From: an uncultured Pirellulales bacterium
GTDB taxonomy: Bacteria; Planctomycetota; Phycisphaerae; Sedimentisphaerales; Anaerobacaceae
NCBI GenBank assembly: GCA_964526785.1
Contig: CAZGMJ010000024.1
Coordinates: forward strand, 4,731-68,730
Direction: 5' to 3'
DNA length: 64,000 nt
The notes under the pieces: model-generated
The model's database searches: none
What the model saw: only the letters and a program-made list of their open reading frames with translations
What the model was told of the DNA's origin: nothing
In this document: in pieces, positions 28,086-44,603 of the stretch
Layout of the letters: each line of letters starts with the position of its first letter
How positions within the stretch are numbered: the first letter of the stretch is position 1
Made by a program: the position numbers and the translations under genes

Positions 28086-28461
28086 GTTCGAACTCCTTCG
28101 AAAATGCACACACAAAATTCTGTCAATTGGCTCGGGCAGCACGGCGTTGCCATGAACCGCGTTGCGAACCATGATGCCATCTCCCACGCGGAAGTGCAAG
28201 TCTCGGTCCTGTACGTGCCCGAACCTCGGAATGTCTCTGCAAACGTCGCCATCAATACGGGCACACAGCTCAATCGACGCCGAGCCAGTCTGCATATTGG
28301 TTAGCTCAGGACGCACCTCGCCTGAGACGCCTGACACCATAAACCGCCTGCAGTAACTTGCAAAACAACCGCGGAACCGTAGAATGAACCAGGTTTGATG
28401 GTGTTGTTCATCATAATGTAAAATCCGTATGTTTCATACCATTTCAAGAAGGAGATAGACT

Positions 28462-30216
28462 ATGAAGCTGTCCGTCCGCTTCCCGGCCGTCACGCTGATA
28501 TGCATATTCTGCGTGACCACTGTTGCCAGCGATATCGAATGGGTGCGAAAGAGCACCGAGACTAACGACATGCCTGTACCGAACGATGGCGATCAACAAA
28601 CCTGCTGCGTCGTTGCGGACCTGAATAAGGACGGTGCGGATGACTTTGTGATCGGCGAGCGGACGAAGGCACCGTCGGTTGTCTGGTATTCTTTCAATGG
28701 CAATGGTTGGGACAGGTATATCATCGAAGACGCCCGCTTGAGACCCGAGGCGGGCGGAGATGCGGCCGATATTGACGGCGACGGCGACAAAGACGTCATC
28801 TTCGGCCAGGACGCGAGCGGCAATAGCATCTGGTGGTGGGAAAACCCATATCCCGATTTCTCCAAGCCCTGGAAGCGACGTTCGATTAAGAATTCCGGTG
28901 CGAACAAGCACCACGACCAGACGTTCGGCGACTACGACGGCGACGCCGGGACCGAGTTCGTCTCCTGGAACCAAAGAGCCAAATCGTTACTTTTATACGA
29001 AATCCCCGGCAAGCCGAGAGCAACGGAACCCTGGGAGGCGACAGTCCTCTACTCGTGGACGTCCGGGCGTGAGCGGGAGGGATTCCCGTCGTTACCGACT
29101 GATCTGAATCTCGACGGCAAACCGGATATTATTGGCGGCGGCCGCTGGTTTGAACATCAAGGCGGTACGCAATACATAGAGCACGTGATCGATGCAGAAA
29201 TGGCCTTTACACAATGCGCGGCGGGCCAGCTAATCAAAGGTGGCCGGCCGGAAGTAGTCTTCTCTCCGGGAGATATGGACGGAGACGCCAAATGGTACCG
29301 GCGGGAGAACGAAGAATGGCAAGGCCATAAACTCCGCTACGTTCGCCACGGCCACACGTGCGAGATTCGCGACGTCGATGGGGATAGCAATATGGACATT
29401 ATGATCGGCGAAATGGGCGACCCCGGCGCCGGAGATGAAGCAAAGGTGTATATCTGGTACGGCGATGGCAAGGGGGGATTCCGCGAAGACGTGGTCTGCG
29501 AAGGCCAGGGAATTCACGAAGGCCGCTTCGGGGACTTCGACGGCGACGGTGATCTGGATATTCTCGTCAAACCATACCATCACAATTCGCCCCGCATTGA
29601 CATCCTGCTCAATAACGGCACGGTCAAAAGCGTCGTCGACGGTTGGGAGATTCTCTTCGATGGCGGCGATCTGGACAAATGGCGATTGGCAGGCGGCGGT
29701 GATCCGAGCAGGAAATGGGCGATAGAAGGCGGTACGCTGGCCCGCAGGCCAAAGGCCGGCATGATCTGGACAAAGCAGCGGTTTGATGATTTCATCCTGG
29801 ATCTGGAATTCAAGACCGAGGGCAACAGCGGCGTCTTCTTCAGGACGAACGATCCTGGCAATCCGGTCCAGACCGGCTTTGAAATGCAGGTAAACAAACC
29901 CAGCCCCAAACCGCACAAGAACAGTTCGGGGTCCATTTACGACGCACTGGCGCCCGCCAGGGAGATGACCAAAGCCGGTCAGTGGAACCACGTCATCATC
30001 ACGGCTGACGATAACAGCATTACAATTGTCATGAACGGCGAGAAGATCATCGATATGGACGTCAATCGCTGGGATACAGCGGGCAGGAATCCCGACGAGT
30101 CAAAAAACAAGTTCCGAACTGCTCTGAAGGACTTCGAAAGAGACGGCCATATTGGATTCCAGGACCACGGAGCGAACGTCTGGTACCGCAACGTTAAGAT
30201 CAAGCACTTGCCATGA
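28462..30216 (+). CDS. Secreted FG-GAP/VCBS-repeat beta-propeller fused to a DUF1080 domain
   Basis: AAGGAG RBS and a signal peptide. Repeated DxDGDGxxD-type motifs (DLNKDGADDFV, DIDGDGDKDVI, DYDGDAGTEFV, DVDGDSNMDIM, DFDGDGDLDIL). C-terminal DUF1080 (WEILFDGGDLDKW...EFKTEGNSGVFFR...IGFQDHGANVWYRNVKI). Confidence 0.88.
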   Translation: MKLSVRFPAVTLICIFCVTTVASDIEWVRKSTETNDMPVPNDGDQQTCCVVADLNKDGADDFVIGERTKAPSVVWYSFNGNGWDRYIIEDARLRPEAGGDAADIDGDGDKDVIFGQDASGNSIWWWENPYPDFSKPWKRRSIKNSGANKHHDQTFGDYDGDAGTEFVSWNQRAKSLLLYEIPGKPRATEPWEATVLYSWTSGREREGFPSLPTDLNLDGKPDIIGGGRWFEHQGGTQYIEHVIDAEMAFTQCAAGQLIKGGRPEVVFSPGDMDGDAKWYRRENEEWQGHKLRYVRHGHTCEIRDVDGDSNMDIMIGEMGDPGAGDEAKVYIWYGDGKGGFREDVVCEGQGIHEGRFGDFDGDGDLDILVKPYHHNSPRIDILLNNGTVKSVVDGWEILFDGGDLDKWRLAGGGDPSRKWAIEGGTLARRPKAGMIWTKQRFDDFILDLEFKTEGNSGVFFRTNDPGNPVQTGFEMQVNKPSPKPHKNSSGSIYDALAPAREMTKAGQWNHVIITADDNSITIVMNGEKIIDMDVNRWDTAGRNPDESKNKFRTALKDFERDGHIGFQDHGANVWYRNVKIKHLP

Positions 30217-30419
30217 CGCCACAGAACAGGACCCGCGGTTCGATCTTCCCTGGTTTCGCCGCAGCTTTCGCCCGTTCAGCGCGCACAGCCTCCGTGGTTG
30301 AACTGCAGGAGTTGGCAAGGTACTATGGCAAGTCGACCGTCCGGCCGGCTAATCCGTCGCCCGGGCCAAATCTGCGTCTGTGACGGTCCCTGAGAGTGTG
30401 ACTTGAGAAAGGATTAGAG

Positions 30420-31364
30420 TTGAGCGACCATTACAGGATATTGGTTACAGGTGGAGCAGGCTATCTGGGTTCGGTTCTTGTTCCGGAATTGCTGAGACTG
30501 GGGCACGACGTGGTCGTGCTGGATAGTTTCATGTTTGCACCGAGTTCGCTGCTGGATTGCTGTCGGCATGATGACTTCCAAGTCGTCCGAGGCGATGCCA
30601 GAGACGAAGCGCTCATCAGGAAACTCGTCTCTGATGTAGATGTCATCATACCATTGGCCGCACTGGTCGGAGCGCCGTTGTGCGACCGGGACCCCGTCGG
30701 AGCCGAGACGACCAACGCCGGCGCCATCAGGACGCTGTGCGCGGCAGCATCGGCCAATCAGAGAATCATTATCCCAATCACCAACAGCGGATACGGCATC
30801 GGCGAGAAAGGGGTCTACTGCACGGAAGAGACTCCTTTGCGACCGATTTCGTTGTACGGCCGGACCAAGGTGGAAGCCGAATCGCATGTCCTCGAGCGCC
30901 AGAACAGCGTCAGTCTGCGCCTGGCTACCGTCTTCGGGCCAAGCCCCCGAATGCGGCTCGATCTGCTCGTCAACGACTTCACCTATCGTGCCGTCAAAGA
31001 TCGCTTCGTCGTCGTGTTCGAGGGCCATTTCAAACGAAATTACATACATATTGGAGACGTGGCCCGCGCGTTTCTGCATGTGTTGGATCGTTTCGACAGC
31101 ATGCGAGGCGAGCCATACAATGTGGGCCTTTCCGACGCCAATCTGTCAAAAGTCGAACTGTGCGAGAAGATACAAGACCATCTTTCGGACTTCGTCTTTC
31201 TCGAAGCTTCGATCGGGGAGGATCCGGACAAACGGGATTATATCGTATCGAATGAGAAGATAGAGAAGACAGGATTCAAGCCTGCGTTTTCGCTGGATGA
31301 CGGCATACGGCAGTTGATCAAGGCCTACAGAATAATCGTCAACAGCAAGTACTCGAATGTTTGA
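30420..31364 (+). CDS. NAD-dependent epimerase/reductase, extended SDR family
   Basis: TTG start. Rossmann VTGGAGYLGS. Catalytic Y-G-R-T-K. It lacks the TDE triad of 4,6-dehydratases, having ITNSGYG instead. Confidence 0.88.
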   Translation: MSDHYRILVTGGAGYLGSVLVPELLRLGHDVVVLDSFMFAPSSLLDCCRHDDFQVVRGDARDEALIRKLVSDVDVIIPLAALVGAPLCDRDPVGAETTNAGAIRTLCAAASANQRIIIPITNSGYGIGEKGVYCTEETPLRPISLYGRTKVEAESHVLERQNSVSLRLATVFGPSPRMRLDLLVNDFTYRAVKDRFVVVFEGHFKRNYIHIGDVARAFLHVLDRFDSMRGEPYNVGLSDANLSKVELCEKIQDHLSDFVFLEASIGEDPDKRDYIVSNEKIEKTGFKPAFSLDDGIRQLIKAYRIIVNSKYSNV

Positions 31365-32307
31365 ACGGAAGCGAACATACGTGGCCGGTCATACAGGTCT
31401 GCTGGGTTCTGCGGTTCTACGGGCCTTGCAGACGCGCAGCTGTCGGCACGTCATCACTCGGTTCCATGAGCAGATGGATCTGACCGACGGACCAGCGGTC
31501 ATGCAGTTCTTCGAACAACAGCGACCCGAATGCGTCTTCCTGTGCGCCGGCAGAGCAGGCGGCATCAGGAGCAACCAGGCATATCCGGCCGATTACCTGC
31601 AAATCAATCTGGCAATCCAGAACAGTGTATTCCAAGCGGCACACAAATACGAAACGGAACATGTGGTCTTCTACGGCTCGTCCTGCACCTATCCGCGTCT
31701 GGCAGGCCAACCCATTAAAGAGTCGAGCCTGCTGACCGGACTGATTGAACCGACGAGCGAAGGCTACGCCACAGCCAAGATAGCCGGACTGATAGCATGC
31801 CGCTCCTACAATCGCCAATACAACAATCGACGCTTTATCGCGCTGTTGCCCAATTCGATATACGGCCCCAACGACAATTTCGATCTGGCCGAATCGCACG
31901 TATTGTCGGCACTGATCCGCCGCTTCCACGAGGCGAAATGCAACGGAACGCCGACCGTAATGCTCTGGGGTTCGGGTAGGCCGCGACGCGAATTTGTCTA
32001 TTGTGACGACGCGGCGGCGGCTTCCCTGTTTGCCGTGGAAAACGCCGACAGACTCGAAAACCGACACTATAACATCGGATCCGGGCAGGACTTTTCCATA
32101 AAAGAGTTGGCTGAAATGGTCTGCGACGTGGTCGGTTACGATGGCGCAATTGAGTGGGATACCTCAAGACCCGATGGAACTCCGCGCAAGCTACTCGACA
32201 GCAGTGATTTCCGAGCCCTGGGCTGGCGGTCCGAAGTCGCGATTGCCGAGGGGCTGAAAAGAACGTATGAATGGTATCTCCAGCAACAACGAAAGAGGTC
32301 CTTGTGA
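31357..32307 (+). CDS. fcl: GDP-L-fucose synthase family enzyme (Fcl/ColC-like 3,5-epimerase-4-reductase)
   Basis: Collinear similarity to E. coli Fcl from memory: VAGHTGLLGSAV, AYPADYL, GSSCTYPRLAGQPIKES, EGYATAKIAG, YNRQY, LWGSGRPRREF, SRPDGTPRKLLD. The start overlaps the upstream stop by 8 nt. The substrate could differ from GDP-4-keto-6-deoxymannose. Confidence 0.85.
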   Translation: MFERKRTYVAGHTGLLGSAVLRALQTRSCRHVITRFHEQMDLTDGPAVMQFFEQQRPECVFLCAGRAGGIRSNQAYPADYLQINLAIQNSVFQAAHKYETEHVVFYGSSCTYPRLAGQPIKESSLLTGLIEPTSEGYATAKIAGLIACRSYNRQYNNRRFIALLPNSIYGPNDNFDLAESHVLSALIRRFHEAKCNGTPTVMLWGSGRPRREFVYCDDAAAASLFAVENADRLENRHYNIGSGQDFSIKELAEMVCDVVGYDGAIEWDTSRPDGTPRKLLDSSDFRALGWRSEVAIAEGLKRTYEWYLQQQRKRSL

Positions 32308-33023
32308 AACCGGCAAATGACCGAAAGAGTGGTGATTTCTCGGCCGTAATCCTGGCCGGTGGGTTAGGTACCAGGCTTCGCTCCGTAGTGGCGGACAGGC
32401 CCAAGATCATGGCCGATGTGAACGAACGGCCGTTTTTGACGTACCTTATCGAGCAGCTCGCCAGGGCCGGTGCCACCGAGGTAACACTGTGTCTAGGCTA
32501 CATGGCCCGATATGTGCAGGACTACTTTGGCTCAAGCTATGGGCAGGTCCGCTTGCAGTATTCGGTGGAACACGAACCGGCCGGCACAGGCGGCGCCCTC
32601 GCCATAGCGGATCCGTTGCTCGAGAGCGATACAGTTCTCGTGATGAACGGCGATTCTTATGTGGACACAGACCTTTCAGCCTTCATCGACTGGTACCGAG
32701 ACGCACAACGCTCGGCGGGAATACTCTGCGTTTATGCCAAAGATACTTCTCGATATGGCAGTATCGAGCTCGGCGATAATGACGCCATCACAGCCTTTCG
32801 AGAAAAAAGAGGCTCCAAAGGCCCCGGCTGGATCAACGCAGGGATATACATGATCGCCAGAAGCAAGATCACCACCTTTCCAAGGGGGGCAAAGTATTCT
32901 CTCGAGCGCGAATTCTTCCCTTCGCTGTTAGGCGAAGAACTCGCGGGCTTCAAAGCCTCCGGACGTTTCATTGACATCGGAACGCCCGAATCGTATGCTA
33001 TGGCAAGCTGTTTCTTCGAATGA
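32304..33023 (+). CDS. Sugar-1-phosphate nucleotidylyltransferase (HddC / ManC-N-terminal-like)
   Basis: AVILAGGLGTRLRSVVADRPK (G-x-G-T-R-L loop). LVMNGDSY. The GTG at 32304 forms GTGA with the fcl-like stop and follows GAAAGAGG. Confidence 0.85.
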   Translation: MKPANDRKSGDFSAVILAGGLGTRLRSVVADRPKIMADVNERPFLTYLIEQLARAGATEVTLCLGYMARYVQDYFGSSYGQVRLQYSVEHEPAGTGGALAIADPLLESDTVLVMNGDSYVDTDLSAFIDWYRDAQRSAGILCVYAKDTSRYGSIELGDNDAITAFREKRGSKGPGWINAGIYMIARSKITTFPRGAKYSLEREFFPSLLGEELAGFKASGRFIDIGTPESYAMASCFFE

Positions 33024-33081
33024 ATAGAGGGTTTGCGGCCAAGCCGGCCCGCATGATGGTAGACATGGAGGTCTTGCTGTA

Positions 33082-34212
33082 ATGGTAATCACGCGTACTC
33101 CTTACCGCATATCGTTTTTTGGCGGCGGCACGGACTACTCGTCCTGGTACCTAAAGCATGGTGGCGCTGTTCTATGCACCAGCATAGACAAATACTGTTA
33201 CCTTACATGTCGCCATCTTCCCCCTTTCTTCGAGCATAAGTACCGGATCGTATACTCCCGCATAGAACTGTGCAAGAGCATTCGCGAAATCCAGCATCCG
33301 GCCGTCCGCGAAACGCTCCGCTTTCTTAAACTCAATAGAGGACTCGAGATACATCACGACGGAGACCTGCCCGCCCGCAGCGGAATCGGGTCGAGTTCCT
33401 CATTTACCGTCGGCCTGTTGCATGCACTCTACGGACTCCAGGGAGTCCTCCCCAGCAAGAGACAACTGGCAACCGAGAGCATCCACATCGAGCAGGAAAT
33501 GATTCGGGAAATGGTCGGATCGCAGGATCAGGTAATAGCAGCACTCGGCGGATTGAATCGAATCTCTTTTGCCCGCGATGGCGAAATTGACATCCGGCCC
33601 GTCACCGTCGCAAACGAACGTCGGGACGAACTCAACTCGCACCTAATGCTGTTCTACACGGGAATAAAGCGAACGGCTTCGAACATTGCCAATGGTTACG
33701 CCCAGTCGATGGATAAGAAACACCAGGCATTACTCAGAATGCGTCACATGGTGGATGAAGCCATCGATATACTCAACAGCGACCGTTCATTGAATGAGTT
33801 TGGCGAACTGCTGCATGATGGCTGGCTTCTCAAGCGATCACTTAGTTCTGCAATATCCAATGGAATCATCGACGACATCTACGGCCGGGCTTGCGACGCA
33901 GGCGCGGTCGGGGGCAAAATTCTCGGAGCCGGTGGAGGCGGTTTCCTGCTGCTGTTCGTGCCCCCCTCCGCCCAGAAGCGGGTACGCAAGGTCCTCAGCA
34001 GACTGATCCGTGTGCCCTTCAAATTCGAAACGGGCGGCAGCCAGGTCGTCTTCTACGAACCGCAACAGGAAGACTACCGCGAACTGGAGCGGGACCGGGC
34101 CACAAGGCAACTCGATTCCTTCAAGGAACTGGAAGCTCTCGAAGATCGCGAATTCGTGGAAAGGCGGATACCTGCAAGAAGAACCCAAGACGAGGTGGAA
34201 TCACCGCTATGA
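33082..34212 (+). CDS. GHMP-family sugar kinase (HddA-like, D-glycero-D-manno-heptose 7-phosphate kinase family)
   Basis: TPYRISFFGGGTDYSSWY N-terminus. GHMP motif II PARSGIGSSSSF. KILGAGGGGFLLLF motif III. GGAGG RBS. Confidence 0.85.
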   Translation: MVITRTPYRISFFGGGTDYSSWYLKHGGAVLCTSIDKYCYLTCRHLPPFFEHKYRIVYSRIELCKSIREIQHPAVRETLRFLKLNRGLEIHHDGDLPARSGIGSSSSFTVGLLHALYGLQGVLPSKRQLATESIHIEQEMIREMVGSQDQVIAALGGLNRISFARDGEIDIRPVTVANERRDELNSHLMLFYTGIKRTASNIANGYAQSMDKKHQALLRMRHMVDEAIDILNSDRSLNEFGELLHDGWLLKRSLSSAISNGIIDDIYGRACDAGAVGGKILGAGGGGFLLLFVPPSAQKRVRKVLSRLIRVPFKFETGGSQVVFYEPQQEDYRELERDRATRQLDSFKELEALEDREFVERRIPARRTQDEVESPL

Positions 34213-35024
34213 CGTCCGTTGGTTCGCTTGAGAAAAAAGCCCGCTGGGTCCGCCGCGAAACGCTGAAGCTCCACAAGCGAGCACCCGAGTCGCGCGTCGC
34301 CTCGTCCTTGTCAATGGTCGAAATATTCGTAAGCCTGTATTATGGCGGTGCGATGCAGTTCGACGCAACCGACACGTTTAGCTCGATGCGAGACCGCTTG
34401 ATCATCAGTAAGGGACACGGCGCAGTCAGCCTGTATCCCATTCTGGCCGATCTGGGATTCCTCGACAGAAAGAACCTCGACACGATCAATGAGCCCGGAG
34501 CCCTTCTCCGGGCCATCCCTGACATGACCATCCCCGGATTCGAGACCATCAACGGGGCGCTTGGGCACGGCCTTGGCATAGCCTGCGGCGTGGCCATGGC
34601 AATGCGGCTGCGCAACACCGACCGCAGAGTTTTCGTCATATGTGGCGACGGGGAACTGAATGAAGGGTCCGTTTGGGAGGCGGCCATGTTCGCGGGCTAT
34701 CACAAGCTGGACAATCTTATCCTTATCGTGGACTGCAATCAGATGTCGATGCTCGGTTACACGAAGGAAATCCTGGATTTGCAGCCGCTTTCGCAGAAAC
34801 TGGAGGCCTTCGGATGGCTTTCCGGCCGGACGGACGGCCATGATATCGAGCAACTCTGTGACATTCTGCACCAAATGAAGAACTCGACCGAGAACAAGCC
34901 AAAGGCGCTTATTGCGCGTACCGTCAAAGGCAGGGGCGTCCCCCAACTGGAAGGCGATCCGCTCTGCCACGTCAAGAGTCTTCGTCCTGAAGAGGTCGAC
35001 GCTTTGCTTGAGGAACACGCATGA
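34209..35024 (+). CDS. Transketolase, N-terminal (thiamine-diphosphate-binding) subunit
   Basis: ATGA overlap with the kinase stop. SLSMVEIFVSLYY, ISKGHGAVSLYPIL. ThDP motif GDGELNEGSVWEAAMFAGYHKLDNLILIVDCN. Confidence 0.9.
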   Translation: MTSVGSLEKKARWVRRETLKLHKRAPESRVASSLSMVEIFVSLYYGGAMQFDATDTFSSMRDRLIISKGHGAVSLYPILADLGFLDRKNLDTINEPGALLRAIPDMTIPGFETINGALGHGLGIACGVAMAMRLRNTDRRVFVICGDGELNEGSVWEAAMFAGYHKLDNLILIVDCNQMSMLGYTKEILDLQPLSQKLEAFGWLSGRTDGHDIEQLCDILHQMKNSTENKPKALIARTVKGRGVPQLEGDPLCHVKSLRPEEVDALLEEHA

Positions 35025-35992
35025 CCGAACCCAGGACAAAGACAATGCGGGACGCCGTAATCGAACGCATTTACGCGAGAATGGCAGAGGACCGGAGCAT
35101 CTTCTTCGTCTCGGCAGACTTTGGGGCCCCGGCGCTGGACCGCATACGGCAGGACTACCCTGACCGTTTTGTCAATGTCGGTATTGCCGAGCAGAATCTG
35201 GTGAATGTGTGCACGGGTCTGGCCCTGGAGGGATTGACCGTGTACGGCTATGCCATCGCCACCTTTCTGACCATGCGAGCCTATGAACAGATACGCAACA
35301 ACATCTCCCTGATGGCCAGGCACCGGCAGATGAATGTGAATCTGCTCGGCGTCGGCGCAGGTCTCAGCTACGATATGTCCGGGCCCTCGCATCATTGTCT
35401 CGAGGATCTGTCCATCATGCGGACGCTGCCCGAGATTGCGATCTTCTCGCCGGGTGACTGGATGATGGCCGAAGCGTTCGTGGACGTATCCATCGGGCAG
35501 AAGGCCCCCAAGTACTGGCGGCTCGATGGCAAACCCGTCCGGTCGATCTACAGCGACGGAGTTGACGTCTGCTGGGATAAGGGCTTCTTCGAGCTATCGA
35601 CTGACGGCGATGTCTGCCTGCTGGCCACCGGATGCATGACGGGCCGCGCATTGGAAGCTGCTGATGCGCTGCGAACCGACGGAATCGCTGTCGGCATAAT
35701 CGATCTCTTCATGCTTCGCCCGCTGGACGCAGATGCACTAACGAAGGCGCTGAGTAGCTACCACACGGTCATCACAATCGAAGAAGGTTTTATTGGAAAA
35801 GGCGGTCTGGATAGCCTGATTTCCGGTATTCTGCGGGCTTCGGGAAGCCAAACCCAGCTCGAATCGCTCGGTTTCCCCGAAGCACATGTGTTCGAATGTA
35901 ACAACAGAGATGCGCTGGTTGAATGGAATGGCTGTGGCCCACAGGCAATAGCCCGGACCGTCACAGACTGTCTTATGCGGTCGAGAAGGTAG
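35021..35992 (+). CDS. Transketolase, C-terminal (pyrimidine-binding + C-terminal domain) subunit
   Basis: ATGA overlap with the N-subunit. FVNVGIAEQNLVNVCTGLALEG, ATFLTMRAYEQIRN. Domain III is present. Confidence 0.9.
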   Translation: MTEPRTKTMRDAVIERIYARMAEDRSIFFVSADFGAPALDRIRQDYPDRFVNVGIAEQNLVNVCTGLALEGLTVYGYAIATFLTMRAYEQIRNNISLMARHRQMNVNLLGVGAGLSYDMSGPSHHCLEDLSIMRTLPEIAIFSPGDWMMAEAFVDVSIGQKAPKYWRLDGKPVRSIYSDGVDVCWDKGFFELSTDGDVCLLATGCMTGRALEAADALRTDGIAVGIIDLFMLRPLDADALTKALSSYHTVITIEEGFIGKGGLDSLISGILRASGSQTQLESLGFPEAHVFECNNRDALVEWNGCGPQAIARTVTDCLMRSRR

Positions 35993-36003
35993 AAAAGGAG
36001 CCA

Positions 36004-37212
36004 ATGGTGTCTTCGGGACAATTGCAAAGTGCAGACACGCAGAAGAGGCTCAACTGGCCCCTGATGGTGAATAACATCACACGCTCGGACCTCGACGTCC
36101 TGATTGAATTCCTGCGCGACATGCCCCGCCTCACGCAGTCGGGCAATGTGGCCGCGTTCGAGCGGGAATGGTCCGAGTGGCTCGGTGTACGGCACAGCGT
36201 TTTCGTTAATTCCGGTTCCTCGGCCAATCAAATCACAATGGCCGCACTGCGACAGCTTCACGGCCCGGGCGAGGTCATCGTGCCGACACTGACGTGGGTG
36301 TCGGATATCGCTTCGGTTCTCCAGCACGGACTCACCCCTGTCTTCGTGGACATCGATCCAAAGAATCTGTGTATGGATACCGAGCAGGTGATCGCCAGGT
36401 TGAACGACCAGACGCGCGCGGTCTTCATCACCTACGTACAGGGCTTCAATGGCTTGACGGACCGCCTTTTGACCGAGCTGAACAAACGCGGCATTCCGCT
36501 TATTGAGGACGTGTGCGAATCCCACGGCGCGACGTTTCACGGCAGAAAACTGGGCAGTTTCGGTCTGGCCTCGAATTTCTCTTTCTACTTCGCACACCAC
36601 ATGAGCACAATCGAAGGAGGAATGGTGTGCACAAATGACAATGACTTTTACCAGACGGCCCGCATGCTGCGATCGCATGGCATGGTCCGCGAGGCATCTG
36701 ACAACGCGCTCAAGTCCGGCTATGCCGACAAATACGCAGACCTTAATCCTGACTTCATTTTCGCCTTTCCCGCATATAACATGCGCAGTACCGAGATCAA
36801 TGCTGTCCTCGGTCGCAGCCAACTGAAACGCCTGGACGAAAACAACGCGAGGCGCAGATATAACTTAAAGGTCTTCCTGGATAATCTTGATTCGGAAAGA
36901 TACCGCACGGATTTTGACCTTGAAGGCAGTTGTAATTACGCGCTTAATCTGATCCTGCGCCGGCCGGATCAAGAATTGAGGGATCGCGTCGAAAACGCAC
37001 TCAGGGCAGCAAACGTGGAATTTCGCAGAGGCAGTGCAGGCGGCGGAAATCAGTTGCGACAGCCCTACCTGCGACAGCGTCTCGGTCATCGTGAATACAA
37101 GAAGTACCCGCAAACCGAACACATACATTTCTTCGGCTGTTACATCGGGAACTATCCCGACCTCGATGAGGCCGATATCAAAGCCCTGTGCAAGTTACTA
37201 AACGGGCTGTAA
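36004..37212 (+). CDS. DegT/DnrJ/EryC1/StrS-fold PLP/PMP enzyme of the RfbH/ColD 3-dehydratase type (Lys replaced by His)
   Basis: AAGGAG RBS. VNSGSSANQI, VIVPTLTWVS. The active-site stretch is NFSFYFAHHMSTIEGGMV, where aminotransferases of this fold carry the Schiff-base Lys. Confidence 0.8.
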   Translation: MVSSGQLQSADTQKRLNWPLMVNNITRSDLDVLIEFLRDMPRLTQSGNVAAFEREWSEWLGVRHSVFVNSGSSANQITMAALRQLHGPGEVIVPTLTWVSDIASVLQHGLTPVFVDIDPKNLCMDTEQVIARLNDQTRAVFITYVQGFNGLTDRLLTELNKRGIPLIEDVCESHGATFHGRKLGSFGLASNFSFYFAHHMSTIEGGMVCTNDNDFYQTARMLRSHGMVREASDNALKSGYADKYADLNPDFIFAFPAYNMRSTEINAVLGRSQLKRLDENNARRRYNLKVFLDNLDSERYRTDFDLEGSCNYALNLILRRPDQELRDRVENALRAANVEFRRGSAGGGNQLRQPYLRQRLGHREYKKYPQTEHIHFFGCYIGNYPDLDEADIKALCKLLNGL

Positions 37213-37224
37213 GAGGAGTGTGCC

Positions 37225-38697
37225 TTGGAGAAACAGGTCGATATTGTACTCGTTAAGCCCGGCAGCCAGAAGCAATTATACGGTGATCTGGCTGTGGATC
37301 AATTGACCGCTATCGAACCGCCTCTGTGGGGGGCCATACTGGCCGGCTTCCTCCGCGACCGTGGCTACTCGGTCTTGCTCTACGATGCAGAGATCGAGAA
37401 CTGGTCCTACGAACAGACTGCGACCGCTGTAGCCGAAGCAGCTCCCCTTCTGGCTGCGGTCGTTGTATCGGGTTCGAACCCCTCTGCCAGCACGATGAAC
37501 ATGTCCGGAGCCGAGCAGATACTTGCATACCTCGGACAGCAGGCTCCGGAAATACATACTCTTCTTGCAGGCCTGCATCCCAGCGCTCTGCCGCAGCAGA
37601 CTATGCAGCAAGTGGATGTTGATTTCCTGTGTCAAGGCGAAGGCTTCTACACGCTCCCCCCCCTTATCGACGCGCTCAAAACAAACGCCCGTGACCTTCA
37701 TATGGAAGGCCTTTGGTACAGGCAAAGCGACCAAATCGTGGCAAATCGCCGGCCGAGCTTGCTGGACGATCTTGGCCAACTCGGCACACCTGCCTGGGAC
37801 ATGCTGCCGATGGACAGGTATCGGGCGCATAACTGGCATTGTTTCGATCACATCGACCAACGCAGCCCATATGCGATCCTGTACACGAGTCTCGGCTGCC
37901 CATTCAGATGCTCGTTCTGCTGCATTAACGCCCTTTTCGGCAGGAACACGATTCGTTACCGGCCGATTGATTCGGTCATGGATGAACTCGATCTTCTCGC
38001 CGGCAGGTACGGCATACGAAACATCAAGATTATCGATGAAATGTTCGCTCTCAATGAAGAACGTGTCATCGAGCTTTGTGACAGGATTATCGAGCGAGGT
38101 TACAACCTGAATATGTGGGCCTACGCCCGCGTCAACACGGTAACGCCCGCAATGTTGACGAAGATGAAGCAGGCCGGCATTAACTGGCTGGCGTACGGCT
38201 TCGAATCGGGATCAAAGAAGGTAATCGAGGACGTTACGAAGGGCTACACGGTCGACCACGTCCAGAGCGTTGTGGAGATGACATACTCTGAAGGTCTCCA
38301 TATATGTGGCAACTATATCTTCGGCCTGCCCGAAGACGACTACGATTCGATGCAGCAAACTCTCGAGATGATGTTTGAGATCAATGCCGAATGGGCCAAC
38401 ATCTACTGCGCAATGGCATATCCGGGTTCGCGGCTGTACGAAATGGCAAAGGAAAACAACTGGCCGCAGCCCGAGTCCTGGCAGGGTTATTCCCAGTATC
38501 GATACGACTCACTGCCCCTGCCGACCAGGCATCTCGCAGCCGGACAGGTCCTGGCTTTTCGCGACTATGCTTTTCACGCTTACTATGATAATCCGCGATA
38601 TCTTTCTATGATAGACGCTAAATTCGGCCCTGACACCGTGGCACATATTCGCCGGATGGCCGCAAAGCAACTCGAACGCAAACACGCATTTGTCTAA
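37225..38697 (+). CDS. Cobalamin-binding (class B) radical SAM enzyme, probable methyltransferase
   Basis: N-terminal B12-binding-like Rossmann segment (DIVLVKP..., VVVSGSNPSAST). Radical-SAM cluster motif C-PFR-C-SF-C within YTSLGCPFRCSFCC. TTG start after GAGGAG. Confidence 0.85.
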   Translation: MEKQVDIVLVKPGSQKQLYGDLAVDQLTAIEPPLWGAILAGFLRDRGYSVLLYDAEIENWSYEQTATAVAEAAPLLAAVVVSGSNPSASTMNMSGAEQILAYLGQQAPEIHTLLAGLHPSALPQQTMQQVDVDFLCQGEGFYTLPPLIDALKTNARDLHMEGLWYRQSDQIVANRRPSLLDDLGQLGTPAWDMLPMDRYRAHNWHCFDHIDQRSPYAILYTSLGCPFRCSFCCINALFGRNTIRYRPIDSVMDELDLLAGRYGIRNIKIIDEMFALNEERVIELCDRIIERGYNLNMWAYARVNTVTPAMLTKMKQAGINWLAYGFESGSKKVIEDVTKGYTVDHVQSVVEMTYSEGLHICGNYIFGLPEDDYDSMQQTLEMMFEINAEWANIYCAMAYPGSRLYEMAKENNWPQPESWQGYSQYRYDSLPLPTRHLAAGQVLAFRDYAFHAYYDNPRYLSMIDAKFGPDTVAHIRRMAAKQLERKHAFV

Positions 38698-38753
38698 AAC
38701 GCTTGGTTGTATCCTCGCGTGAATGGACACAGACACGAACGGACTGATACCAG

Positions 38754-39695
38754 ATGCTGCTGTCGATTGTCTTTTCATTCCGAAACGAGCAGGAAGTAAT
38801 TCCCGAGTTGATCAACAGGCTCCGCAACACCCTCGACGGTCTGGACATTGACTACGAACTACTCTTTGTTAACGATGCCTCGACCGACGGCTCGCTGGAA
38901 CTGCTCCTCAACTACCACGACAAGGACCCGCGCGTCAAGATCATCAATATGTCCAGACGGTTCGGCGTAACGCCTTGTGTGATGGCCGGGTTCAGGCAGG
39001 CCAGAGGCGATGCGGTCGTGTATATGGACGCAGATTTGCAGGACCCGCCCGAACTCATCCCTGAGATGCTGGAAGCCCGTCGCCAGGGTGCAGACGTCGT
39101 TAATACCATACGCACAAAACGCAAGGGCGAGAATCCCGCGAAGATGTGGTTGACCAAGCGAGCGTACGGGATCATAAACCGTGTCGCCGACATAGATATA
39201 CCGCCCAATTCCGGCGATTTCAAGCTGCTCTCGCGCAGAGCGTTGGATCAGGTATTGCGTCTCAATGAATACGACCCGTACATGCGAGGTCTCGTTCGCT
39301 GGGTCGGATTCAAACAGGTGGACATACCTTACGAGCGGGACGCACGCCATGCAGGCAAGCCCAAGTTCTCGCTTCTGAACAGCTTGAATCCTATGAAGGA
39401 GTTTGTCCGCGGGCTCATTTCGTTCTCAGAACTGCCACTGTACTTCGCATTGGTCGTGGGATTTCTGGTCTCTGTGGGAGCCTTCGGCTATCTGCTCTAC
39501 ATCGTCATTACGCGCGTATTCCTCGACATGCATCGCCCGGGTTGGCCCGCAATCATGGTCACGATGCTCTTTCTCGGCGGCACAACGCTATTCACCATCG
39601 GTATTCTGGGCCTGTACATCGGCAAGATTCATCACCAGACCAAGGGCCGCCCACCATACATCATCGAAAGCACCATAGGACTGGATAACGATTGA
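38754..39695 (+). CDS. GT2-family polyprenyl-phosphate glycosyltransferase (DPM1/GtrB/ArnC-like)
   Basis: LSIVFSFRNEQEVI, LLFVNDASTDGS, DADLQDPPELIPEML. Two C-terminal TM helices (LPLYFALVVGFLVSVGAFGYLLYIVI; WPAIMVTMLFLGGTTLFTIGILGLYIG), characteristic of the lipid-phosphate-sugar synthases. Confidence 0.85.
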   Translation: MLLSIVFSFRNEQEVIPELINRLRNTLDGLDIDYELLFVNDASTDGSLELLLNYHDKDPRVKIINMSRRFGVTPCVMAGFRQARGDAVVYMDADLQDPPELIPEMLEARRQGADVVNTIRTKRKGENPAKMWLTKRAYGIINRVADIDIPPNSGDFKLLSRRALDQVLRLNEYDPYMRGLVRWVGFKQVDIPYERDARHAGKPKFSLLNSLNPMKEFVRGLISFSELPLYFALVVGFLVSVGAFGYLLYIVITRVFLDMHRPGWPAIMVTMLFLGGTTLFTIGILGLYIGKIHHQTKGRPPYIIESTIGLDND

Positions 39696-41470
39696 CTAAA
39701 ACGGCTATGGGAACATCTGAGCAACCGAGCGGTCGGCCCCTGGCAATTGTGTTAGTCGCTTCCGGTCTCATCGGATTCGGCCTCGGTTTGTCCAACGCGA
39801 CCTGGCAGGTAACCGTCGAGACCGGCCAGGTACTTGCCGGTCTCGTGCAATACCCGAAGGACAATCCTTTCTACATCTATCACCTGAAAGTCTTCACGAT
39901 CATCAATCATATCAGCGCGATATTGCTCCGCACCGGCTTGTCGGAACAAACCGCCTCCATATTGATCTCGGGCGTGCTCGGAACAATATCCTTCACGGCG
40001 ATCGCTTCGCTGATCTTTGCGATCAGTCGCTGCATCGGCCTGTCCATACTCGGAACACTCCTGGTGTATCTGGCAAACCTTGTCGGCGACGGGACTGTGT
40101 ATCCCATTTTGCTGATGGGCCAACCCCCCACATATGGAATTCTGGGGACCTCCTTTGCAGTCCTCGCAGTCGGCCTGATCGGATCACGGGCATACCGAGC
40201 AGGCCTGTTTTGTCTGCCGGTAGCACTCAGCGTCCATCCATCCATCGGTCTCTGGATCGCGTCGATCGGTCTCATCTGCGCGGCATCTGATTGGTCTTTT
40301 GCGAAACGCATACTGCGGCGTTGCTATCCATACCTCATCGCGGGCATTCTGCTGACCACACTGGCGGCCGCCTGGCAGATATACCTGATGCGAGGCGTAC
40401 CCGATACGGATCCCCGCATACAGCAGCAGTATCTAAGCGCATTTGTCCAACATTGGGATTCGCACCGACGCCCGCTGTATGAATGTGAACCGGGGCACGG
40501 AATACTCGTTCCTTGGGGCGTCATTTACTGTGCGTATAGCATCATGACCGGATTCTGTGGCCGCAGACTCTTCGAAGATAACAAGGCGGCGGTCTTTCTC
40601 TTTCGTGTGGCAATATGGTCGGGTGCGATATCGCTGCTTCTGGGCATACTGACACATCTGCCGCCCCAGAGTATTCCAACCTCTCTGCTGATCCTCATGC
40701 CCGGCAGATACGTCAATCTCAATAACATTATGCTCGCCCCACTGGTTTTCGGCATCCTGATCTCGCCCCGATTTCGGCCGTACATGACCAATCTCAGAAT
40801 GTTCGTCCTGTTAATGGTCGGCGCATTACTCTCCCGGCACGATGAGGCACAGTTCATTGTCTTCGGCGCAACCCTGATATGGATAATGCATGTTGCCTTG
40901 AGCAGCAAATCACCTGCAGAGCGTCCTGCAATCGGAGAAAGGACGAGGCGAATTGGCTACGCATTGGCCGCATCTGTGGCTCTCTGCGGCGTCCTGGCCA
41001 TCAATCTTCCACGCGAAAAATACGTCAACCGTTTTCTGCGCCATCCCGATCCCATGCGAGATCGCACGAACGATCCATTCTATGCCACCGTCGCTGAACG
41101 CCCCGGCCTCCTGACGATCACCCATTTCAGCCCGCTTATTCAGCTACGCACCCGTAGACCGATCCTCGCCGACATGGCATCGCCCAATTTCTTCACCTAT
41201 GCACCCGAAACCGCGCCGATGTTCGATCGCATCCTTCGGCAAGTCTATGGAGTGAATCTGCTGCAACCACCGCCTGAAAACCTCAAGCACGAGGAGATCC
41301 GCCCCGAACTCTACCGCCGGCTATGGGAAGAACGCCCCCCTTCTCAATGGAAGAACATACGCCGGACCTTCGGGACAACCGATGTCCTGACTCCCGCCGA
41401 CTGGGTACTGCAACTACCCGTAGTCACTCAAGACCACCACTTCGCCCTGTACGCAATACCCGCCGATTGA
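39692..41470 (+). CDS. Polytopic membrane protein (about 11-13 TM helices + ~170-aa soluble C-terminus), candidate GT-C-type glycosyltransferase
   Basis: The start overlaps the GT2 stop (TTGA); an alternative ATG lies at 39707. Hydrophobic helices run through about aa 400, followed by a hydrophilic tail. I recognise no named motif, so the function is inferred from context only. Confidence 0.6.
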   Translation: MTKTAMGTSEQPSGRPLAIVLVASGLIGFGLGLSNATWQVTVETGQVLAGLVQYPKDNPFYIYHLKVFTIINHISAILLRTGLSEQTASILISGVLGTISFTAIASLIFAISRCIGLSILGTLLVYLANLVGDGTVYPILLMGQPPTYGILGTSFAVLAVGLIGSRAYRAGLFCLPVALSVHPSIGLWIASIGLICAASDWSFAKRILRRCYPYLIAGILLTTLAAAWQIYLMRGVPDTDPRIQQQYLSAFVQHWDSHRRPLYECEPGHGILVPWGVIYCAYSIMTGFCGRRLFEDNKAAVFLFRVAIWSGAISLLLGILTHLPPQSIPTSLLILMPGRYVNLNNIMLAPLVFGILISPRFRPYMTNLRMFVLLMVGALLSRHDEAQFIVFGATLIWIMHVALSSKSPAERPAIGERTRRIGYALAASVALCGVLAINLPREKYVNRFLRHPDPMRDRTNDPFYATVAERPGLLTITHFSPLIQLRTRRPILADMASPNFFTYAPETAPMFDRILRQVYGVNLLQPPPENLKHEEIRPELYRRLWEERPPSQWKNIRRTFGTTDVLTPADWVLQLPVVTQDHHFALYAIPAD

Positions 41471-41519
41471 GCGTCATACACCCAATACGCAATTCAGATT
41501 CGCACACTACGCCGCCATA

Positions 41520-43106
41520 TTACTTGAAGATGCCCTGCAAAGCGTCGAAAATAGCCCGTTCGAGTTCATCCTCAGGCTCTTCTTCCTGTTCCCTGGGCTG
41601 CTCTGCGGGTTTGGGCTTCTTCACAGGTTTCCTGATTGGAACTTTGAAAGCATATGCGTCACGACAGGGCAACATCTCGGGAGAAATCTCCGACAGATCG
41701 ACAGCAATGTCTTTGCCTTTCCGCTGCCAGGAAAGATTACGCTTAAGCCCCAACATGGTCACGGCCGCATTGTCCTTCGGATCGACGTCTCTTAGAATCA
41801 GTTCACGGCCCGGCCATCGCGGCGCAATCGCATAGATTAGCTCCGGTTTGCTCGTGAAGAAAACCTCAATGGATGCCCGCCCCTTCTCAGACGGCTCCAC
41901 CAAATCGAGAATGCTGTACTGCGTCTTGTGCTGGCCGTAAGAACGATCGGGCACGTCTCCCTGGCTCCACTGACAGTTGCGATTCCACGCCTTTGTGCCA
42001 TAGATCGCCTCGCCGTTAACGCTAAGCCATCGTCCGATGCCCAACAGCCGGTCCTGCATGATCAAAGGAATGCGGCCGTCAGCCGTCGGCCCGACGTCCA
42101 GCAGCAGATTGCCGCCTCGGCTGACAAGGTCCACCATCATCAGCACCAGTTCGCGGACGCCCTTGTAATTGCTCAGCGGCTCGTTGCGATTGTAGCCGAA
42201 CGAATTTCCGATGCCGCGGTTCTCTTCCCACGGATGCGTGCCCTGGTCGAGACCTGCTCCGTATTCCGTGGTATAATATCCGCCGTGCTTGTGCCGAATG
42301 TCCTTGCCCCATCGATCGTTTATCACAACCTCGTTGCGCACGGGCGATTCGTTGAACAGCCATGCGAGCAGCTCGGGAGATTTCCATTGTTTATCCGTCA
42401 TGTCCCACTCGCCGTCGCTGAAAATCAAGGCAGGCTTGTAGTTGGTGACAACATCCTTGAACTGCGGCCACATATGCTCGGTCACGTAGCGCTGTCGATC
42501 CATGCGCCACAGCGGGTTGAACCATTCGTACAGTGAATAGTACAGCCCCATCTTCAGATTCGCGCGGCGAACCGCTGCACCGAGTTCCCCCAGCAAGTCC
42601 CGCCTCGGACCGACCTCCGTGCTGTTCCATAGCCTGCCCCAGGTCTTGTTCGCCTCCTCGCTGGGCCACAGACAGAAACCATCGTGGTGCTTGGATGTCA
42701 GGACCACGTACTTGGCCCCCGCTCTGGCAAACAGGTCGGCCCACTCCGCCGGCTCGAACAACTCGCACCTGAACATCGGCGCAAAGACGCTGTAGGCAAG
42801 AGACGAGCCGTAGTTCTCCCTGTGAAACTTGCCCCAGTCATTGTCCTGAAGTGTCCCGTCTGCATTAAACGCATGACGCCAGTACCACTCCGAGTAGGCG
42901 TCCTCAGGTCCCCAGGCCGGAACGGAATAGATGCCCCAGTGAATGAAAATCCCGAACTTCGCGTCCAGGAACCACTCCGGCGTCGGTCGACTGTCCAGCG
43001 ACTGCCAGTTCGGTTCGTACCGCTTCTGTGCCGCCTCCGCTGTAGCAATAATCGCCGGCAGCACAACTATCGTCAAGAGAACATACTTCACGGTTTTACA
43101 CTGCAT
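41520..43106 (-). CDS. Alpha-L-fucosidase, glycoside hydrolase family 29
   Basis: Signal peptide. PEWFLDAKFGIFIHWGIYSVPAW, YSEWYW, KHHDGFCLWPS. Confidence 0.92.
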   Translation of the reverse strand: MQCKTVKYVLLTIVVLPAIIATAEAAQKRYEPNWQSLDSRPTPEWFLDAKFGIFIHWGIYSVPAWGPEDAYSEWYWRHAFNADGTLQDNDWGKFHRENYGSSLAYSVFAPMFRCELFEPAEWADLFARAGAKYVVLTSKHHDGFCLWPSEEANKTWGRLWNSTEVGPRRDLLGELGAAVRRANLKMGLYYSLYEWFNPLWRMDRQRYVTEHMWPQFKDVVTNYKPALIFSDGEWDMTDKQWKSPELLAWLFNESPVRNEVVINDRWGKDIRHKHGGYYTTEYGAGLDQGTHPWEENRGIGNSFGYNRNEPLSNYKGVRELVLMMVDLVSRGGNLLLDVGPTADGRIPLIMQDRLLGIGRWLSVNGEAIYGTKAWNRNCQWSQGDVPDRSYGQHKTQYSILDLVEPSEKGRASIEVFFTSKPELIYAIAPRWPGRELILRDVDPKDNAAVTMLGLKRNLSWQRKGKDIAVDLSEISPEMLPCRDAYAFKVPIRKPVKKPKPAEQPREQEEEPEDELERAIFDALQGIFK

Positions 43107-43202
43107 TTTTCACCTCCGAGGTCAACTCTATCTGCACGCCCAACTACGAAACGACACAGCGGGCCTCTTGCACTTGTGTGATTTAGAAATCTCGATATGT
43201 GC

Positions 43203-44081: not shown

Positions 44082-44384
44082 AGTCGTGTCCTTTCCTTTC
44101 ATGCGCCGACGCGCTCAAGGCAGTCCATGCCCCGCACAAACACACAATCTGAACATTTCGATTCAGTAATATATATTAACCTTCCTGTGCGCATGTGCCA
44201 ACAGTCTTATGACGCATCTTTTGGGCCAAATTCGCAAAAGCGAAGCAGGGAATCCCCTTGCGAACCAAGGGTTTGAAGTCAGCTACAAACCGAAAGAGTA
44301 GCTCCGGCGACCTCCATTCCCCCGCCGGAACTCGCATGAGAAGTCTGTACTCGCGGCAGCCTTGCCGCAACCGCAGATGTGGCC

Positions 44385-44603
44385 TTAGTGGCCGTGCCGG
44401 TAACGCGGTTGGCACTGTGGCCTTCCCGGCCTGATGATCACGCTATGCGGATAGACTGCCGGCCTTCTATAAACCACGACCGACCTTGGGGCACACGCCG
44501 CAGGCCTGCGCCGCACACAGTACGTATCGTAGGTATTGATCTCGCAACCGGCAATGCACACGCCTGAAATCAGCAGTATGGTTGTCAGCAGTATCCGTTT
44601 CAT
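44385..44603 (-). CDS. Small Cys/Arg/Pro-rich lipoprotein (72 aa)
   Basis: GGGAGGA RBS 7 nt upstream. Signal peptide with lipobox IAGC. Confidence 0.5.
   Translation of the reverse strand: MKRILLTTILLISGVCIAGCEINTYDTYCVRRRPAACAPRSVVVYRRPAVYPHSVIIRPGRPQCQPRYRHGH

Follow-up and report, generated by a model that had tools for sequence, protein, structure and literature searches.

The stretch of DNA considered here, 64,000 nucleotides of contig CAZGMJ010000024.1 from an uncultured Pirellulales bacterium (referred to below as the window), carries at positions 30420-41470 ten tightly coupled open reading frames (ORFs) on the + strand, which are numbered ORF1 to ORF10 in their order along the DNA. 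All ten, together with their junctions, were found where a preliminary description of this DNA had placed them. On evidence from sequence, structure prediction and genomic context, we consider it moderately probable that this operon converts GDP-heptose into a deoxygenated, carbon-branched sugar, loads that sugar on a lipid carrier and passes it to an acceptor outside the cytoplasm. The sugar-making part of the operon is a cassette that is abundant in environmental bacteria and whose product is undescribed.

The genes are read as an operon because their stop and start codons overlap. In a base-by-base check, the ATG of ORF2 at 31357 was seen to overlap the stop codon of ORF1 at 31362-31364 (ATGTTTGA), and further overlaps occur between ORF2 and ORF3 (GTGA at 32304), ORF4 and ORF5 (ATGA at 34209), ORF5 and ORF6 (ATGA at 35021) and ORF9 and ORF10 (TTGA at 39692). 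The other gaps measure 58 nt (33023-33082), 12 nt (37212-37225) and 56 nt (38697-38754). A start for ORF7 at 35923, as had been given previously, would cause a 70-nt overlap with ORF6; the ATG at 36004, which lies 11 nt past the ORF6 stop codon, is preceded by an AAGGAG Shine-Dalgarno sequence and yields a protein of 402 aa (homologues have 389-401 aa), is preferred, and translation probably begins there. For ORF10 the start might be the TTG at 39692 or the ATG at 39707, the latter fitting the 587-aa length of one member of its cluster, so that the TTGA overlap marks one of two possible starts. A scan of 30100-41700 for promoters and terminators was uninformative, since the counts were at or below the expectation from shuffled sequence. 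The profile searches agree with the families that the preliminary description had assigned to the first nine genes, all of which match Pfam models well above the gathering cut-offs (Table 1).

Table 1. Genes of the operon at window positions 30420-41470, with family assignments and the profile matches that accompany them (SDR, short-chain dehydrogenase/reductase; ThDP, thiamine diphosphate; PMP, pyridoxamine 5'-phosphate; SAM, S-adenosylmethionine; GT2, family 2 glycosyltransferase)
Gene	Position	Strand	Assignment	Profile match
ORF1	30420..31364	+	Extended SDR	Pfam Epimerase, 117 bits
ORF2	31357..32307	+	Fcl/ColC-like SDR of the GDP-4-keto-sugar 3,5-epimerase/4-reductase family	
ORF3	32304..33023	+	Sugar-1-phosphate nucleotidylyltransferase, HddC-like (heptose-1-phosphate guanylyltransferase)	NTP_transferase, 98 bits
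ORF4	33082..34212	+	GHMP kinase, HddA-like (D-glycero-D-manno-heptose-7-phosphate kinase)	GHMP_kinases_N and _C
ORF5	34209..35024	+	ThDP-binding N-terminal subunit, split transketolase type	Transketolase_N, 106 bits
ORF6	35021..35992	+	Pyrimidine-binding and C-terminal subunit, split transketolase type	Transket_pyr, Transketolase_C
ORF7	36004..37212	+	ColD/RfbH-type PMP-dependent sugar 3-dehydratase	DegT_DnrJ_EryC1, 225 bits
ORF8	37225..38697	+	Cobalamin-binding radical-SAM enzyme	B12-binding PF02310, 50 bits (cut-off 32); Radical_SAM PF04055, 60 bits
ORF9	38754..39695	+	GtrB/ArnC-type polyprenyl-phosphate GT2	Glycos_transf_2, 109 bits
ORF10	39692..41470	+	Membrane protein of 592 aa with ~13 helices, a C-terminal periplasmic domain and a predicted GT-C fold	

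The surroundings of related genes were scored by tblastn in two sets of loci, 80 from metagenomes with ORF8 as the seed and 36 from genomes with ORF10 as the seed. Genes of the ORF8 type are almost always found with a Cj1427-like SDR, an HddA-like kinase, a nucleotidyltransferase, a His-type DegT protein and a two-subunit ThDP enzyme. Where 6 kb or more of upstream sequence was available (28 metagenome loci), the SDR is present in 22, the kinase in 21, the nucleotidyltransferase in 18 and the ThDP pair in 17, the pair being of the transketolase type in 8 and of the pyruvate-dehydrogenase-E1 type in 9. Many ORF10 loci had at first appeared to be devoid of a ThDP enzyme, an artefact of querying with the transketolase type alone; queries with the E1 type filled this gap. 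The preliminary description had treated the ten genes as one unit, and the comparison agrees with this, as their co-conservation spans at least 10 phyla. The same ten-gene order occurs in Pirellulales and Sedimentisphaerales, whose metagenome-assembled genomes also hold the closest relatives of ORF10, and a cluster of the Chitinispirillaceae has the same order minus the Fcl-like gene, while the genes stand in a changed order in Geoanaerobacter, Acidobacteriota, Nitrospirota, Lentisphaerales, Thermoflexales, Acidimicrobiia, Hydrogenedentales and Myxococcota. Coincidence cannot reasonably account for the arrangement, because an identical order recurs in unrelated phyla. Elsewhere, genes for Wzm/Wzt and cytoplasmic glycosyltransferases come after the cassette, and cassette and outlet are therefore separable modules: genes 1-8 constitute a widespread mobile cassette that feeds either Wzm/Wzt polysaccharide loci or a GtrB-like GT2 with an ORF10 protein.

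The outlet found in the window consists of the latter two proteins. ORF9 was described previously as a lipid-phosphate GT2 with two C-terminal helices, and it is indeed a full-length homologue of GtrB (sll0501, 5EKE, 236 bits), ArnC (145 bits) and DPMS (81 bits), with NCBIfam matches to PgfS (257 bits) and ArnC (152 bits), a DAD motif and two hydrophobic helices near its C-terminus (~residues 229-252 and 266-290). No match to ORF10 was found in Pfam or NCBIfam, and no Pfam match to any of the 48 family members whose alignment was used for an AlphaFold2 model. The model (pLDDT 92.7, pTM 0.92) has ~13 long helices, and residues 35-84, which follow the first transmembrane helix (TM1), form a helical loop. 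Its top Foldseek matches are ArnT (5F15) and EmbA/B (E ~2e-4, probability 1.00), followed by EmbC, AftA, AftD, DPY19, AglB, STT3 and ALG9/12, with probabilities of 0.9-1.0 throughout, as the GT-C fold suspected in the preliminary description would lead one to expect. A transporter, the other candidate for this protein, was rejected, the major facilitator superfamily and other transporters reaching probabilities of at most 0.28 with TM scores of ~0.1. In the family, E43, in the loop after TM1 (Glu in 47/48 and Asp in 1/48), and E85 (Glu in 47/48) are nearly invariant and R339 is invariant (48/48); by analogy with other GT-C enzymes, the loop would be periplasmic. Residues 440-592, modelled separately (pLDDT 90), have no significant neighbour in the PDB, the best being the C-terminal domain of AglB-S2 at E 0.25, and give no clue to the acceptor. 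The family comprises 1,411 representative clusters at E<=1e-10, and in most ORF10 loci a GT2 gene lies next to the ORF10 gene or not far from it. Based on the modelled fold, ORF10 is predicted to transfer a lipid-phosphate-linked sugar to an extracytoplasmic acceptor, the lipid carrier presumably being the intermediate between the two proteins. A MatE-family transporter is encoded at 15213-16634 on the - strand of the window, 14 kb upstream of the operon; it is the only MatE gene. A MATE protein is the proposed flippase for an undecaprenyl-phosphate-linked sugar in a three-component system of C. youngae (PMC11127046).

Whether such an outlet adds one sugar or many is a separate question. The large ORFs of the window include no Wzx, Wzy or Wzz, no polysaccharide ABC exporter, no initiating phosphoglycosyltransferase, no GmhA or GmhB and no flippase, all of which had been listed as absent in the preliminary description. 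Its conclusion that the locus does not make a polymer does not follow from these absences, since lipid-phosphate GT-C enzymes can build polymers, as in the case of mycobacterial arabinan, and since relatives carry ORF10 genes in tandem. ORF10, alone or with another GT-C enzyme, might thus polymerise the lipid-phosphate-linked sugar into a homopolymer or a long side chain in the manner of the Emb and Aft proteins, several of which (EmbA/B/C, AftA and AftD) are among its closest structural matches. Two ORF10-family genes occur per locus in L019, L022, L031 and L034, in tandem in L019, L031 and L034, and such pairing hints at more than one transfer reaction; a second, PMT-like GT-C gene is found along with ORF10 in L001, L008 and the plasmid-bearing strain RS-1 described below. 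In addition, homopolymers are the form in which two known sugars of the carbocyclic or bicyclic kind, caryose and bradyrhizose, are found (PMC9092360, PMC4743980). The window, however, encodes one GT-C enzyme, and the top match of this protein, ArnT, is a single-transfer enzyme; the sequence itself is silent on processivity. We consider polymerisation unlikely, and transfer of a single sugar would be the expected outcome.

The identity of the sugar can be approached through the first seven genes. ORF1 aligns end to end with PDB entries 6VO6/6VO8 (~58% identity over residues 6-313, E 2.6e-114), which are presumably Cj1427, the GDP-heptose C4-dehydrogenase of C. jejuni, and homologues that are 51-73% identical to ORF1 occur in nearly every related cassette. 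ORF1 is therefore probably a Cj1427-type C4-dehydrogenase, given that label. The best NCBIfam model for ORF4 is HddA (133 bits, cut-off 600), and heptose kinases take the first four places among its PDB matches (3K85, the WcbL entries 4USK/4USM, and 4N3O). ORF3 scores best against HddC (160 bits, cut-off 300) and mannose-1-phosphate guanylyltransferase (155 bits, also under its cut-off), as against only 77 bits for the CDP-glucose family, and the nucleotide carrier would be GDP. ORF2 reaches 403 bits with the GDP-L-fucose synthase model NF047922 (cut-off 500) and 324 bits with E. coli Fcl (1BSV); it has no counterpart in the cassettes of Chitinispirillaceae, Desulfotignum and NaphS2, and this gene is optional.

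ORF7 finds its best PDB matches in ColD/WbdK (1.7e-47). Its FYFAHHMSTIEGG aligns with SFYSHHIATMEGG of ColD, both having HH where aminotransferases have the Schiff-base Lys, and His occupies the position of this Lys in 36/36 close ORF7 homologues and in both DegT classes of the cassette. The deoxygenation by a dehydratase that had been predicted previously is in keeping with this replacement. Two enzymes that had been listed as missing partners are not needed in such a pathway: a 4,6-dehydratase, because ORF1 would oxidise C4 directly (if the Cj1427 label is right), and an E3-type reductase, because ColD-type enzymes regenerate PMP from glutamate. The match of ORF1, the HddA/HddC-like ORF4 and ORF3 and the ColD-type His of ORF7 together suggest a start of the pathway from GDP-heptose by way of the 4-keto to the 3-deoxy-4-keto compound, and it is most likely, as judged from these similarities, that the sugar of the operon is heptose-derived. 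C. jejuni enzymes from both of these families, a C4-dehydrogenase and a C3-dehydratase, have been shown in vitro to turn GDP-heptose into GDP-3-deoxy-4-keto-heptose (PMC10680097).

A version of the cassette in a cultured bacterium offers a further view of this chemistry. Plasmid pDMC1 (58.7 kb) of Solidesulfovibrio magneticus RS-1 contains a complete E1-type version (NC_012797.1, ~21950-39660; L126/L128) with IS66 elements on its flanks. On one strand it encodes, from the head of the cluster, a VTT/DedA protein, two GT2 enzymes, the radical-SAM enzyme, a NUDIX hydrolase, the kinase, E1 alpha and beta, Fcl, DegT, the SDR, the nucleotidyltransferase, a PMT-like GT-C protein, an ORF10 homologue (WP_012750639.1; 28% identity, E 4e-46), an L-2-hydroxyglutarate oxidase (lhgO; 328 bits, above the NCBIfam cut-off) and a GmhA-like SIS protein. 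The NADH bound to Cj1427 is recycled by 2-oxoglutarate, which yields L-2-hydroxyglutarate in a ping-pong cycle (PMC10680097), and the presence of lhgO in the RS-1 cluster fits this cycle. The lhgO and GmhA-like genes would thus lend independent support, at the level of gene content, to Cj1427-type chemistry and to a heptose origin. GmhA-like SIS genes adjoin the cassette in seven other loci as well. The NUDIX hydrolase gene stands beside the kinase and radical-SAM genes in RS-1 and likewise on plasmid AZO_p6 of Azospirillum lipoferum 4B (L127), and has no counterpart in the window.

The ThDP enzyme is the component for which two quite different roles might be envisaged. It is possible in principle that the split transketolase just supplies sedoheptulose-7-phosphate for GmhA, ORF8 being a C-methyltransferase and the product an unbranched C-methyl-3-deoxy-heptose. 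Sedoheptulose-7-phosphate is indeed both the heptose precursor and a normal transketolase product, ORF5/ORF6 match transketolase profiles, the best PDB match of ORF6 is a genuine split transketolase (6YAJ, from C. hydrogenoformans; 132 bits), and most characterised B12 radical-SAM enzymes are methyltransferases, including QCMT, the nearest solved relative of ORF8. The cofactor apparatus is in place, with a ThDP motif in ORF5 (GDG at residue 146 and an Asn ~30 residues further on) and the cofactor-activating Glu of ORF6 in IAEQN. The substrate channel of ORF6, on the other hand, has GAGLSYDMSGPSHH where 6YAJ has the canonical HAGLTVGEDGASHQ. The canonical transketolase motif H-x-G-x4-G-E-D-G-x-[ST]-H-Q is absent from ORF6, and the transketolases of the cassette are all changed, with GVGxGxSYDxSGP[ST]HH as compared to the canonical SHAGLTxGxDGxSHQ. 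They are thereby devoid of the canonical channel His and Asp, which, by comparison with His469 and Asp477 of yeast transketolase, would bind the phosphate and the acceptor, respectively. Two split-transketolase pairs are present within one locus in L122 (3867-8900), one with the cassette-type motif and one canonical.

In many other genomes the transketolase slot of orthologous cassettes is taken by a pyruvate-dehydrogenase-E1 alpha/beta pair (E1_dh 226 bits), which shares just 23-25% identity with the transketolase type, as compared to 57-67% for the neighbouring genes, and which to our knowledge cannot make sedoheptulose-7-phosphate. The replacement of one type by the other at the same slot and the loss of the canonical channel motif both argue for branching by the ThDP enzyme rather than for precursor supply; moreover, a ThDP pair is found in nearly every cassette with the radical-SAM enzyme, which would be unexpected for a dispensable supply enzyme. 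We therefore regard mere precursor supply as distinctly unlikely. The E1 alpha/beta proteins are a known family for C2 branches on keto-sugars (aldgamycin and kibdelomycin), and split transketolases have been proposed to carry out C2 branching in miharamycin and amipurimycin (PMC12247030). By these sequence comparisons, ORF5/ORF6 are predicted to put a two-carbon (hydroxyacetyl) branch on a 3-deoxy-4-keto intermediate, for which C4 would be the branch point.

The subsequent reaction is harder to assign. ORF8 has the architecture of class B enzymes, with an N-terminal B12-binding domain and a CX3CX2C motif (CPFRCSFC at residue 225). Its best NCBIfam profiles are HpnJ (152 bits, cut-off 578) and BchE (133 bits, cut-off 481), others being lower, and neither HpnJ nor BchE is a methyltransferase; its nearest solved relatives are the methyltransferase QCMT (9CCB, 74 bits) and the dehydratase AprD4 (64 bits). 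ORF8 belongs to a very large and tightly conserved family of its own (relatives at E<=1e-30 number more than 7,800, and 65-70% is their typical identity between phyla), which is almost always sited in a heptose/ThDP cassette. Our favoured guess, to which we would give somewhat less than an even chance, is that a C-C bond would form by radical chemistry between C7 and the branch and close a carbocycle like that of caryose; C-methylation is about as likely. Ring closure is favoured because a reductase for a branch ketone is absent from the cassettes of Desulfotignum and NaphS2, which have seven genes each, and because the caryose skeleton fits the predicted output of the E1-type cassette.

The scheme that we propose for the operon has two modules, the order of steps being the one that we infer from the predicted activities. 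In the first (genes 1-8), a GDP-linked higher-carbon sugar would be built from heptose, with GmhA and GmhB supplied from elsewhere in the genome. The Cj1427-like ORF1 would oxidise C4, the ColD-type PMP enzyme ORF7 would remove the C3 hydroxyl to give GDP-3-deoxy-4-keto-heptose, and ORF5/ORF6 would add the hydroxyacetyl C2 unit to the C4 ketone, forming a tertiary alcohol and a nine-carbon skeleton; ORF8 would then modify the branched sugar, and the Fcl-like ORF2 might epimerise or reduce at some step that we have not placed. In the second module (genes 9-10), the GtrB/ArnC-like ORF9 would load the sugar on undecaprenyl phosphate at the cytoplasmic face, a flippase would move the lipid-linked sugar across the membrane, and ORF10, with its GT-C fold, would hand it to an envelope acceptor outside.

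There are several observations that weigh against this scheme. The equation of 6VO6 with Cj1427 is a presumption, the papers examined not giving the PDB code, and all of the NCBIfam equivalog scores of the operon lie under their cut-offs. GmhA and GmhB are not among the large ORFs scanned in the window, and no flippase gene (GtrA/SMR/MATE/ArnEF) lies in or beside 30420-41470, where the intergenic gaps are at most 58 nt. The normal reaction of Fcl-type enzymes is the reduction of a C4 ketone, and in the case of ORF2 this would be in competition with the addition of a branch there. For ORF8, the nearest solved relative, QCMT, is a methyltransferase, and the sequence does not distinguish a cyclase from a methylase. 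The TM scores of ORF10 to GT-C enzymes are modest (0.3-0.42, at E ~2e-4), and hhalign found no relation between its family and the co-located PMT_2 GT-C proteins (probability 0.6%). Finally, reduced clusters in L001, L008 and L011 have an Fcl-like gene, a nucleotidyltransferase, a kinase, a PMT_2 GT-C, a GT2 and ORF10 and are without the SDR, ThDP, DegT and radical-SAM genes; ORF10 is thus not tied to the full sugar pathway, and the outlet is also used with a simpler sugar.

A role in the making of a secondary metabolite (an aminoglycoside, nucleoside or glycolipid antibiotic) rather than of the cell envelope is highly improbable: split-transketolase and E1-type branching have so far been discussed just in actinomycete antibiotic clusters (PMC12247030) and AprD4 is among the solved relatives of ORF8, but the window has no aglycone machinery (polyketide synthase, nonribosomal peptide synthetase, cyclitol or nucleoside genes), and other genomes show the cassette in linkage with Wzm/Wzt, Wzy_C, GtrB-like and GT-C genes, its carriers being environmental bacteria by the thousand from many phyla.

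Within the window, the operon is flanked upstream by the gene for an FG-GAP/DUF1080 protein and downstream by a convergent fucosidase gene. It forms an island among carbohydrate-degradation genes at 20630-30216 and 41520-46950 (sulfatase, GH26, DUF2961, FG-GAP with DUF1080, alpha-L-fucosidase and GH16). Farther away, the - strand encodes a MacB-type tripartite efflux set at 6016-11627 (FtsX/MacB_PCD permease, ABC ATPase, HlyD-like adaptor and outer-membrane OEP protein) and, at 51589-60140, hybrid histidine kinases and response regulators (PAS, HAMP, CHASE8) followed by a sigma-54-dependent response regulator. The remainder of the window has typical Planctomycetota content. The carbohydrate-degradation genes around the operon and the Pirellulales affinity of its nearest relatives likewise indicate a source in the Planctomycetota.

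The distribution of ORF8-type enzymes in sediments, soils and groundwater means that a very common bacterial surface sugar may be chemically unknown. If the proposed scheme were true, C-branching of a sugar nucleotide by a transketolase-type (or E1-type) enzyme would for the first time be seen outside of actinomycete antibiotics, a GDP-heptose pathway would for the first time include a B12 radical-SAM step, and a route would be opened toward sugars such as caryose. ORF10 in turn represents a GT-C-fold family of ~1,400 representative clusters without a Pfam model. A polyprenyl-phosphate donor of the heptose type would be new as far as we know, there being no described polyprenyl-phosphate heptose of which we are aware. 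As the cultured S. magneticus RS-1 has the complete system on pDMC1, these predictions are directly testable.

In the papers that could be searched, neither this set of enzymes nor the radical-SAM enzyme is described, in agreement with the earlier remark that no characterised pathway has such a combination; the first four steps correspond to characterised GDP-heptose chemistry of C. jejuni. The capsular GDP-heptose pathways of C. jejuni (PMC10680097) use enzymes of the same families as the early steps of the operon, namely a heptose kinase (HddA) and a guanylyltransferase (HddC), to which ORF4 and ORF3 are similar, a Cj1427-type SDR (~58% identity between ORF1 and 6VO6, if the latter is Cj1427), a His-type PLP/PMP 3-dehydratase (the HS:5 C3-dehydratase) and Fcl-like SDRs (the C4-reductases). 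They differ in having neither a ThDP enzyme nor a B12 radical-SAM enzyme, and in their use of cytoplasmic glycosyltransferases and ABC capsule export, as compared to a lipid-phosphate monosaccharide and a GT-C enzyme here. The GDP-3-deoxy-heptoses of C. jejuni were obtained only on mixing enzymes of different serotypes (PMC10680097).

Among the ThDP enzymes associated with C-branching are YerE (yersiniose), the E1 alpha/beta proteins termed 'alphaKADH2' (aldgamycin and kibdelomycin) and the split transketolases proposed for miharamycin and amipurimycin (PMC12247030), in all of which, as in the operon, the ThDP gene stands beside genes for deoxy-4-keto sugar nucleotides. The logic of yersiniose biosynthesis, in which a 3-deoxy-4-keto sugar meets an acyl anion equivalent, is likewise shared, YerE acting on CDP-3,6-dideoxy-4-keto-glucose. 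No YerE-type enzyme of the acetohydroxyacid synthase/decarboxylase family was met in the operon, where ORF5/ORF6 are a split transketolase and a 4,6-dehydratase is absent. The known systems use CDP- or dTDP-6-deoxyhexoses, whereas the substrate here would be a GDP-heptose and the loci are those of envelope glycans in Gram-negative and environmental phyla. The 13 branching transketolases predicted so far are all from Streptomycetes, and none has been characterised in vitro (PMC12247030).

ORF8 has a B12-binding domain and a radical-SAM core in common with HpnJ (hopanoid cyclitol ether), the calditol synthase Cds and BchE, as well as with the methyltransferases GenK, QCMT and TokK; it falls far under the HpnJ cut-off (152 vs 578 bits) and constitutes a family of its own. 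The formation of carbocycles from sugars has been attributed to HpnJ and Cds, and the biosynthesis of caryose, a 4,8-cyclo-3,9-dideoxy-nonose, has been described as unknown (PMC9092360). The skeleton of caryose equals the prediction for an E1-type cassette: the seven carbons of heptose plus an acetyl group at C4 make nine, minus the 3-hydroxyl, with the 9-methyl derived from the acetyl group and closure between C7 and C8. This match is on paper and concerns the skeleton only, and from the transketolase type of the window one would expect a 9-hydroxy analogue or else a ring of another kind. A tentative and, in our own estimate, rather doubtful extension of the scheme is that genes 1-8 give genetic access, for the first time, to caryose-type carbocyclic higher sugars, with E1-type members making caryose-like 4,8-cyclo-3,9-dideoxy-nonoses and transketolase-type members making hydroxylated analogues, which in the present case would be delivered via polyprenyl phosphate by an unclassified GT-C family. 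The best 120 homologues of the radical-SAM enzyme of Azospirillum include proteins of Azospirillum, Ferrovibrio, Arenibaculum and Magnetospirillum, and no Burkholderia or Trinickia caryophylli is among these 120, a result that does not refute the link. Bradyrhizose has ten carbons, and its hemiacetal ring can be formed through any of O-4, O-5 and O-9 (PMC9912281), so that it would be a 4,9-cyclo-decose. It was rejected as a direct product match, as its carbon count does not fit heptose plus C2; its candidate cluster has a dTDP-glucose 4,6-dehydratase-like gene (PMC4743980).

For the outlet, the closest parallels are the three-component systems (GtrA/GtrB/Gtr*, ArnC/ArnE-F/ArnT and the undecaprenyl-phosphate-ribose system of C. 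youngae with its GT136 enzyme; PMC11127046), in which a GtrB/ArnC-family glycosyltransferase adjoins an enzyme of the GT-C fold, and in the case of arn the sugar pathway is encoded alongside, as it is in the operon. The operon differs from them in the lack of a flippase gene, in an ORF10 that belongs to no Pfam GT-C family and in a donor that would be heptose-derived and branched. By analogy with all of these systems, the operon would work like a three-component outlet of the Gtr/Arn type that is fed by a C. jejuni-like GDP-heptose pathway, to which ThDP branching and a B12 radical-SAM step have been added.

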